From Escherichia coli (GTDB lineage Bacteria > Pseudomonadota > Gammaproteobacteria > Enterobacterales > Enterobacteriaceae): a stretch of DNA of 64,000 bases. Location of the stretch: the NCBI RefSeq assembly GCF_003334785.1, contig NZ_QOWV01000002.1. One strand, 5' to 3'. The notes under the pieces were generated by a model, which was given only the letters and a program-made list of their open reading frames with translations, made no database searches and was not told the DNA's origin. The position numbers and the translations under genes were made by a program. Positions 1,031 through 1,333 of this stretch are shown piece by piece (position 1 is the first letter of the stretch; each line of letters starts with the position of its first letter).

Positions 1031-1333
1031 ATGAAAAAAAGAAATTTCAGCGCAGAGTTTAAACGCGAATCCGCTCAACTGGTCGTTGACCAGAATTACA
1101 CCGTGGCAGATGCAGCCAGCGCTATGGATGTCGGCCTTTCCACAATGACGCGATGGGTGAAACAATTACGTGATGAGCGGCAGGGAAAAACACCAAAAGC
1201 CTCCCCCATTACCCCGGAACAAATTGAAATCCGTGAGCTCAGGAAAAAGCTACAACGTATTGAAATGGAAAATGAAATATTAAAAAAGGCTACCGCGCTC
1301 TTGATGTCAGACTCCCTGAACAGTTCTCGATAA
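1031..1333 (+). CDS. IS911 OrfA (HTH/leucine-zipper transposition regulator)
   Basis: [53 protein letters not shown]... matches IS911 OrfA (InsN) as recalled. Confidence 0.9.

Follow-up and report, generated by a model that had tools for sequence, protein, structure and literature searches.

A complete ISEc52 element in the cox gene of an Escherichia coli P2 prophage and the probable −1 frameshifting site of its transposase genes

We analysed a 64-kb stretch of Escherichia coli DNA (64,000 nt in full, called the window below) and found that its positions 959 to 2208 are, with a probability that we put at about 0.88, one complete copy of the insertion sequence ISEc52 lying in the cox gene of a P2 prophage, with a transposase that would be produced by −1 programmed ribosomal frameshifting at the heptamer of positions 1282 to 1288. 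The anatomy of the element, its intact reading frames and catalytic residues, its family membership, the clean insertion into cox, and the occurrence of identical copies in many other genomes were all observed directly. The system as such is already known: ISEc52 is a catalogued and very common insertion sequence of E. coli, and −1 frameshifting of the IS911 type is textbook material.

The whole element is 1250 bp long and has TG...CA ends, its two extremities reading TGAAGTGG... and ...CCACTTCA. The terminal inverted repeats, compared by eye, agree at 25 of 36 positions, and when the window was searched with both of them each gave a single match, i.e., no further copy of the element was found in it. 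The element shares with the IS3 family the length of 1.2 to 1.5 kb, the imperfect inverted repeats ending in 5'-TG...CA-3', and the 3- to 4-bp duplication of the target, which in this case is a triplet (Table 1). The insertion separates codon 25 of cox from codon 26, and removal of positions 959 to 2211, that is, of the element together with one ACA, restores a cox open reading frame identical to that of phage P2 at 276 of 276 positions.

The flanks of the element are phage P2 sequence (98.8% identity), and the element sits at the head of the early operon (cox-orf78-B-...-A) of a prophage that runs from the first base of the window onward. Farther along, positions 35000 to 59000 are E. coli chromosome (the dgcE-mdtABC-yegI-asmA region), 100% identical to several genomes. 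A search of 5,426 complete E. coli genomes did not find the cox::IS junction itself in any of them. Since the junction is absent from all of these and cox is restored exactly, the insertion appears to be private and is probably recent; ISEc52 would have entered the P2 prophage at cox codon 25/26 by simple transposition. Cox is the excisionase of P2 and also the repressor of its lysogenic promoter Pc, and because the gene is split here the prophage in the window is probably locked in the chromosome, capable neither of excision nor of the lytic switch.

Table 1. Features of the element and of its surroundings, with positions in the window
Feature	Positions	Strand	Basis or remark
P2 cox 5' fragment, codons 1-25	884..958	+	Severed by the insertion
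Left target-site duplication, ACA	956..958	.	Same triplet at 2209-2211
Left inverted repeat (IRL), TGAAGTGGTTTACTGAATTTGGCCACC...	959..994	+	Sole match in the window
orfA, 100 aa, HTH DNA-binding domain and leucine-zipper region	1031..1333	+	ATG 1031, TAA 1331-1333
Position of the SD-like frameshift stimulator, GGAA (IS911: GGAG)	1267..1270	+	11 nt before the heptamer; cassette comparison
ATT in frame with orfB, immediately 5' of the heptamer	1279..1281	+	299 aa to TAA 2176
Slippery heptamer A_AAA_AAG, predicted −1 programmed ribosomal frameshift site	1282..1288	+	Phase, open frames, geometry
orfB part of OrfAB, Gly87 to Leu382, then TAA	1288..2178	+	−1 frame
Predicted stimulatory RNA three-way junction, base stem plus two hairpins	1294..1352	+	MFE −22.3 kcal/mol
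Catalytic Asp227 (GAT), first D of DDE	1708..1710	+	Alignment-invariant
Catalytic Asp287 (GAT), second D, 60 residues past D227	1888..1890	+	Alignment-invariant
Catalytic Glu323 (GAG), 36 residues past D287; Lys330 seven further	1996..1998	+	Alignment-invariant
A6 run (A5 in IS911 copies and in a 97.4% relative)	2167..2172	+	Copy comparison
Right inverted repeat (IRR), TGAAGTGGTCAACAAAAACTGGCCACC... on the minus strand	2173..2208	-	Sole match in the window
Right target-site duplication, ACA	2209..2211	.	Pairs with 956-958
P2 cox 3' fragment, codons 26-91 and stop	2212..2412	+	Downstream of the element

We then determined which insertion sequence this is. An earlier note on this DNA had called it IS911, which gives the right kind of element (94.2% DNA identity) under a name that has to be replaced by ISEc52. 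Among the 5,426 complete E. coli genomes there are full-length copies 100% identical to the element, and every one of them is labelled in RefSeq 'IS3-like element ISEc52 family transposase', whereas the copies labelled 'IS911 family' are about 94% identical to it. The references used for IS911 were plasmid-borne copies from Shigella dysenteriae and S. sonnei and the published 98-nt frameshifting cassette. The identity of 94.2% is that to the Shigella copies, and the OrfAB fusion protein differed from that of Shigella IS911 at 12 or 13 of the first 380 residues (367 or 368 identical, about 96.8%) and in the C-terminal tail. In the practice of ISfinder, isoforms share roughly more than 95% protein or more than 90% DNA identity, so the values found here fall in the usual isoform range; the databases, however, give this sequence a separate name, ISEc52. 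From these comparisons the element is identified as ISEc52, a member of the IS3 group of the IS3 family and, among named elements, the one closest to IS911. A 2026 preprint describes a gnd-disrupting element of E. coli Nissle that is completely identical to the ISEc52 of ISfinder, with a bit score consistent with a length of about 1250 bp, and suggests early laboratory propagation as the time of its acquisition.

Certain IS911 copies were restricted or discarded as references. Those of pAST85 and p6817 are interrupted by an internal stop or a frameshift and were used for the DNA comparison only, while the 'IS911' copy of BL21 was rejected, having A5G instead of A6G and being a decayed copy inherited at one locus. 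The A5G form is found also in WP8-S17-ESBL-12, EcPF40, and Lstone01, in each case at the BL21 site, which is flanked by genes for an MFS transporter and a DUF2254 protein, and the copy is vertically inherited in these four strains. A −1 slip in an IS911-type copy with A5G no longer reaches orfB, and the BL21 and WP8 annotations still read 'programmed frameshift' and give a protein product.

The coding capacity of the element was examined on the conceptual OrfAB, obtained by joining positions 1031 to 1288 to positions 1288 to 2178. The resulting protein of 382 residues scored 380.6 bits against the NCBIfam model for IS3 family transposases (NF033516, cut-off 160), covering profile positions 1 to 368 of 369, and contained the Pfam domains HTH_Tnp_1, HTH_21, and rve (residues 218 to 316, E=3e-31); in OrfA by itself, HTH_Tnp_1 covers residues 1 to 74 (E=1.2e-12). 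The earlier note had proposed an alignment in search of point mutations in the DDE residues of OrfB, and this alignment turned up none: D227, D287, and E323, as well as K330, were invariant among IS911- and ISEc52-family proteins of E. coli, Shigella, Klebsiella, and Cronobacter, and no difference from Shigella IS911 touches any of the four. The protein thus has what marks an IS3-family transposase, namely, the fit to the family model, the HTH, the DDE triad, and a K seven residues after the E. Exact OrfA and exact OrfB each occur on at least 1000 public contigs, and the exact 382-residue OrfAB is on record as Q6Q6S9_ECOLX. The claim that this copy can make a full-length transposase therefore stands as far as capacity goes, the family model being covered end to end, with the qualification that the C terminus is KKL and not that of the 389-residue form; the intact sequence demonstrates the coding capacity, whereas production of the transposase is supported indirectly, by the presence of identical copies at many different sites.

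That difference at the C terminus arises from the run of six A's close to the right end of the element. Owing to the extra A, orfB ends ...YWKKL* with the stop at 2176 to 2178, as against a longer tail whose stop lies closer to the IRR tip, and OrfAB has 382 residues (A6, KKL) versus 389 (A5). A sequencing error was rejected as the source of the A5/A6 difference, which is lineage specific and consistent across many independent assemblies. In RefSeq, the CDS of identical copies reaches element position 1242 and carries the note 'frameshifted' together with a pseudogene flag, the 'frameshifted' flag being found on copies identical or 99.8 to 99.9% identical to positions 959 to 2208; the A5 relative with 97.4% identity is annotated as a 'programmed frameshift' with a 389-residue product. 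Taken at their word, these annotations would make the copy a dead pseudogene in which the extra A at 2167 to 2172 alters or truncates the C terminus and so inactivates the transposase. We consider this improbable in view of the abundance of the A6/KKL form, since copies at least 99% identical turned up in 942 complete-genome records of E. coli, at up to 25 places per record, and exact OrfB is as frequent as stated above. The tail, moreover, is variable among close relatives, and conservation in the alignment extends only up to Lys380, everything before that point being conserved.

The sites occupied by other copies also speak against a dead element. Five identical or near-identical copies (99.8 to 100%) were examined and proved to lie in five different genes or flanks. 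Three of the five have fresh 3-bp duplications (TAG, AGG, and CAG, beside the ACA of the window copy); the other two lie between truncated genes and lack a duplication, which suggests later rearrangement. As the transposase of IS911 works about 200-fold better in cis (PMC5009743), purely trans mobilisation of an inactive copy is unlikely, and the spread of identical copies together with this cis preference argues that the ISEc52 variant is active and encodes its own working enzyme. The RefSeq label 'frameshifted' is, on this comparison, probably an annotation artefact that stems from the extra A as measured against a presumed 389-residue reference, and not from a defect at the programmed frameshift site. 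It may mean that a very common element is mis-annotated systematically, and a pseudogene label of this kind should not count as evidence of inactivity. Judged by its sequence, the window copy itself looks transposition-capable, which would make this a genome with a live mutagenic element; a silent host or regulatory block acting on this particular copy is possible.

With the element taken as an intact ISEc52, we turn to how orfA and orfB would be joined. The earlier note had placed an A-AAA-AAG heptamer in the OrfA codons for LKK and had described OrfB as open in the −1 frame from there to 2178, and translation confirmed both points. AAAAAAG occupies bases 1282 to 1288, the codons of the orfA frame being TTA (1280 to 1282), AAA (1283 to 1285), and AAG (1286 to 1288), which encode Leu84-Lys85-Lys86, and the phase of the heptamer relative to orfA is A_AAA_AAG. 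The last upstream stop in the −1 frame is the TGA at 1273 to 1275 and the next is the TAA at 2176 to 2178; orfB is thus free of stops from 1276, through the heptamer, and on to 2178. This is the two-ORF arrangement of the IS3 family, in which orfB lies in the −1 frame and the heptamer lies inside the overlap. The motif A_AA.A_AA.G ranks among the most efficient, or most slippery, in E. coli, and in a test of 64 heptamers the motif-to-background ratios had a maximum of 10 when no stimulator was present and of 112 when those of IS911 were included (PMC4066793).

The 98-nt IS911 cassette gives about 12 to 13% −1 frameshifting in reporter assays (PMC8136817, Table 1). Positions 1262 to 1359 of the window match this cassette at 95 of 98 bases, and the heptamer, the AUU that precedes it, the spacer, and both hairpins are identical in the two. 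The first of the three differences is a G-to-A change at 1270, synonymous in orfA (Glu80), by which GGAG, named as the stimulatory SD of IS911 (PMC4066793), becomes GGAA; the predicted duplex with the 3' end of 16S rRNA has an energy of −3.6 kcal/mol for GGAA versus −6.7 kcal/mol for GGAG. The other two lie in and beside the base stem of the downstream structure, where A1347G turns a U-A pair into U.G and A1352G permits an added C1294-G1352 pair, and pairing in the stem is retained despite both A-to-G changes. The predicted topology is the same in the window and in the IS911 cassette (−22.3 versus −21.0 kcal/mol), the three-way junction of IS911 having been described before (PMC5009743), and the fold of positions 1289 to 1356 had a z score of −2.33 relative to dinucleotide shuffles. 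An E-value-mode scan of positions 900 to 2300 against Rfam returned no family, which is uninformative as Rfam appears to be without an IS911-type frameshift element.

The comparison with the IS911 sequence that the earlier note had recommended (95 of the 98 cassette bases, 94.2% of the DNA) thus upholds its description of the frameshift signal as intact for the heptamer, the AUU, and the downstream structure, and corrects it for the SD-like stimulator. In terms of the three-part signal of IS911, the heptamer and the predicted junction are both present and the SD-like element reads GGAA, not GGAG. We compared 15 sequences in this respect and found GGAA together with GGGCGCG in all seven of the ISEc52 type and GGAG together with GAGCGCA in all eight of the IS911 type; as judged from these sequences, the GGAA/GGAG pattern is a lineage split and gives no evidence of compensation. 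In IS3-family relatives of RM6927 and of an O157:H7 plasmid, a 3-nt insertion (GGCTACAACCGCGCTC) is present between the heptamer and the base stem; it gives them a spacer of 9 nt instead of 6 and could alter the efficiency of frameshifting there.

The ATT (AUU) directly before the heptamer is the start codon of free OrfB in IS911, and the element has this codon, in the orfB frame, at 1279 to 1281, where it would be the start. The SD is said, in work of Prere et al. from 2011, to be the stronger of the two stimulators of IS911 and to be required for AUU-initiated OrfB. Since the SD-like stimulator of ISEc52 is one base weaker than that of IS911, we expect a frameshift rate below the 12 to 13% of IS911 and less AUU-initiated OrfB; since A_AA.A_AA.G is highly slippery in E. 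coli, the rate is expected to be nonzero.

An alternative route to the fusion protein is slippage of the RNA polymerase at the A6 run of the heptamer, by which the mRNA would lose or gain an A and most of the fusion would arise at the level of transcription. Some IS3-family members use this route (PMC6211511), and the site is indeed a homopolymer run. The run comprises, however, only six A's, phased exactly as X_XXZ_ZZN, and it is flanked by the conserved RNA structure and, at the distance used in ribosomal frameshifting, by an SD-like element; moreover, the near-identical IS911 cassette gives its 12 to 13% in reporters by ribosomal frameshifting (PMC8136817). Transcriptional slippage as the main source of the fusion is therefore highly improbable. 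A chance A-rich string without any recoding role, which the excess of AAAAAAG in the window (24 on both strands versus about 6.4 expected from base composition) might bring to mind, is effectively refuted, as the recoding geometry is found among the 24 heptamers only at 1282 (in the 0 frame, 98 codons without a stop before the heptamer and a stop 16 codons after it; in the −1 frame, no stop over 298 codons) and the surrounding 98-nt block is the one that matches the experimentally used cassette at 95 positions. From its sequence context, then, the heptamer at 1282 is not a chance occurrence.

A second in-phase A_AAA_AAG lies at 2548 to 2554, inside P2 orf78, and shares the 12-mer TTAAAAAAGGCT with the site at 1282. 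The −1 frame that is open there is the frame of the replication gene B (ATG at 2590), and a −1 slip would yield an Orf78-gpB fusion. This heptamer is kept in all the close relatives of P2 and is missing in Enterobacter phage ENT4, the single diverged relative compared. Because of its absence from ENT4 it was dropped as a candidate conserved recoding site, and it is probably a chance occurrence.

By programmed ribosomal frameshifting, which is the route that we favour for the element, ribosomes translating orfA would pause at the heptamer under the influence of the downstream junction (the likely pausing stimulator, 5 to 6 nt downstream) and, weakly, of the SD-like GGA(A). The tRNA-Lys in the P site and that in the A site would then slip one base back onto AAA_AAA, and translation would go on in orfB up to the TAA at 2176 to 2178 to give the 382-residue OrfAB, in which the DNA-binding part of OrfA, with its HTH and leucine zipper, would be coupled to the DDE catalytic domain. 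OrfAB would bind the inverted repeats and, by analogy with its family, would carry out copy-out-paste-in transposition via a circle. In such a circle IRR and IRL abut across 3 to 4 bp, and a strong junction promoter results (PMC9330008). We assembled the junction in silico (IRR, 3 bp, IRL), and it reads TTGACC-17 bp-TTTACT, compared with TTGACC-17 bp-CACACT in IS911; IRL positions 9 to 11, at which the two elements differ, would thus belong to the −10 hexamer predicted for this promoter. ISEc52 and IS911 may, on this model, differ in the strength of that promoter. Frameshifting and transposition, and the efficiency of each, are what we infer from the features described.

We also raise, as a tentative and rather doubtful idea, that in the ISEc52 lineage the IS911 recoding signal exists as a natural 'SD-down' variant. 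The GGAA may lower frameshifting and abolish AUU-initiated OrfB, an effect perhaps partly offset by the C1294-G1352 pair, and ISEc52 would still reach up to 25 copies per genome, either despite a lower output of transposase or because such an output is better tolerated. If this were true, SD-down ISEc52 would constitute a natural experiment on transposase dosage, as set by recoding, versus the spread of an insertion sequence.

With regard to known systems, no difference was found from ISEc52, the window element being 100% identical over all 1250 bp to ISEc52-family copies; the ISEc52 product annotated by PGAP as a 'programmed frameshift' (the 97.4% relative) has 389 residues, as opposed to 382 in the window element. 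IS911 of Shigella dysenteriae serves as the model of the IS3 family both for −1 frameshifting and for transposition by copy-out-paste-in. The element shares with it the length class, the TG...CA ends, the −1 overlap of orfA and orfB, IRR except for one base, and the DDE and K residues. It differs from it in IRL positions 9 to 11 (967 to 969), where the window element has TTT and IS911 has CAC, and in length, the Shigella copies compared having 1249 bp instead of 1250. The dnaX gene of E. coli uses the same A_AAA_AAG heptamer and has a simple stem-loop in place of the three-way junction predicted for the window element, whereas IS3 has another slippery motif of the X_XXZ_ZZN type and a pseudoknot where the window element has the IS911-type junction; dnaX and IS3 both have an SD-like element upstream and an RNA structure downstream (PMC8136817).
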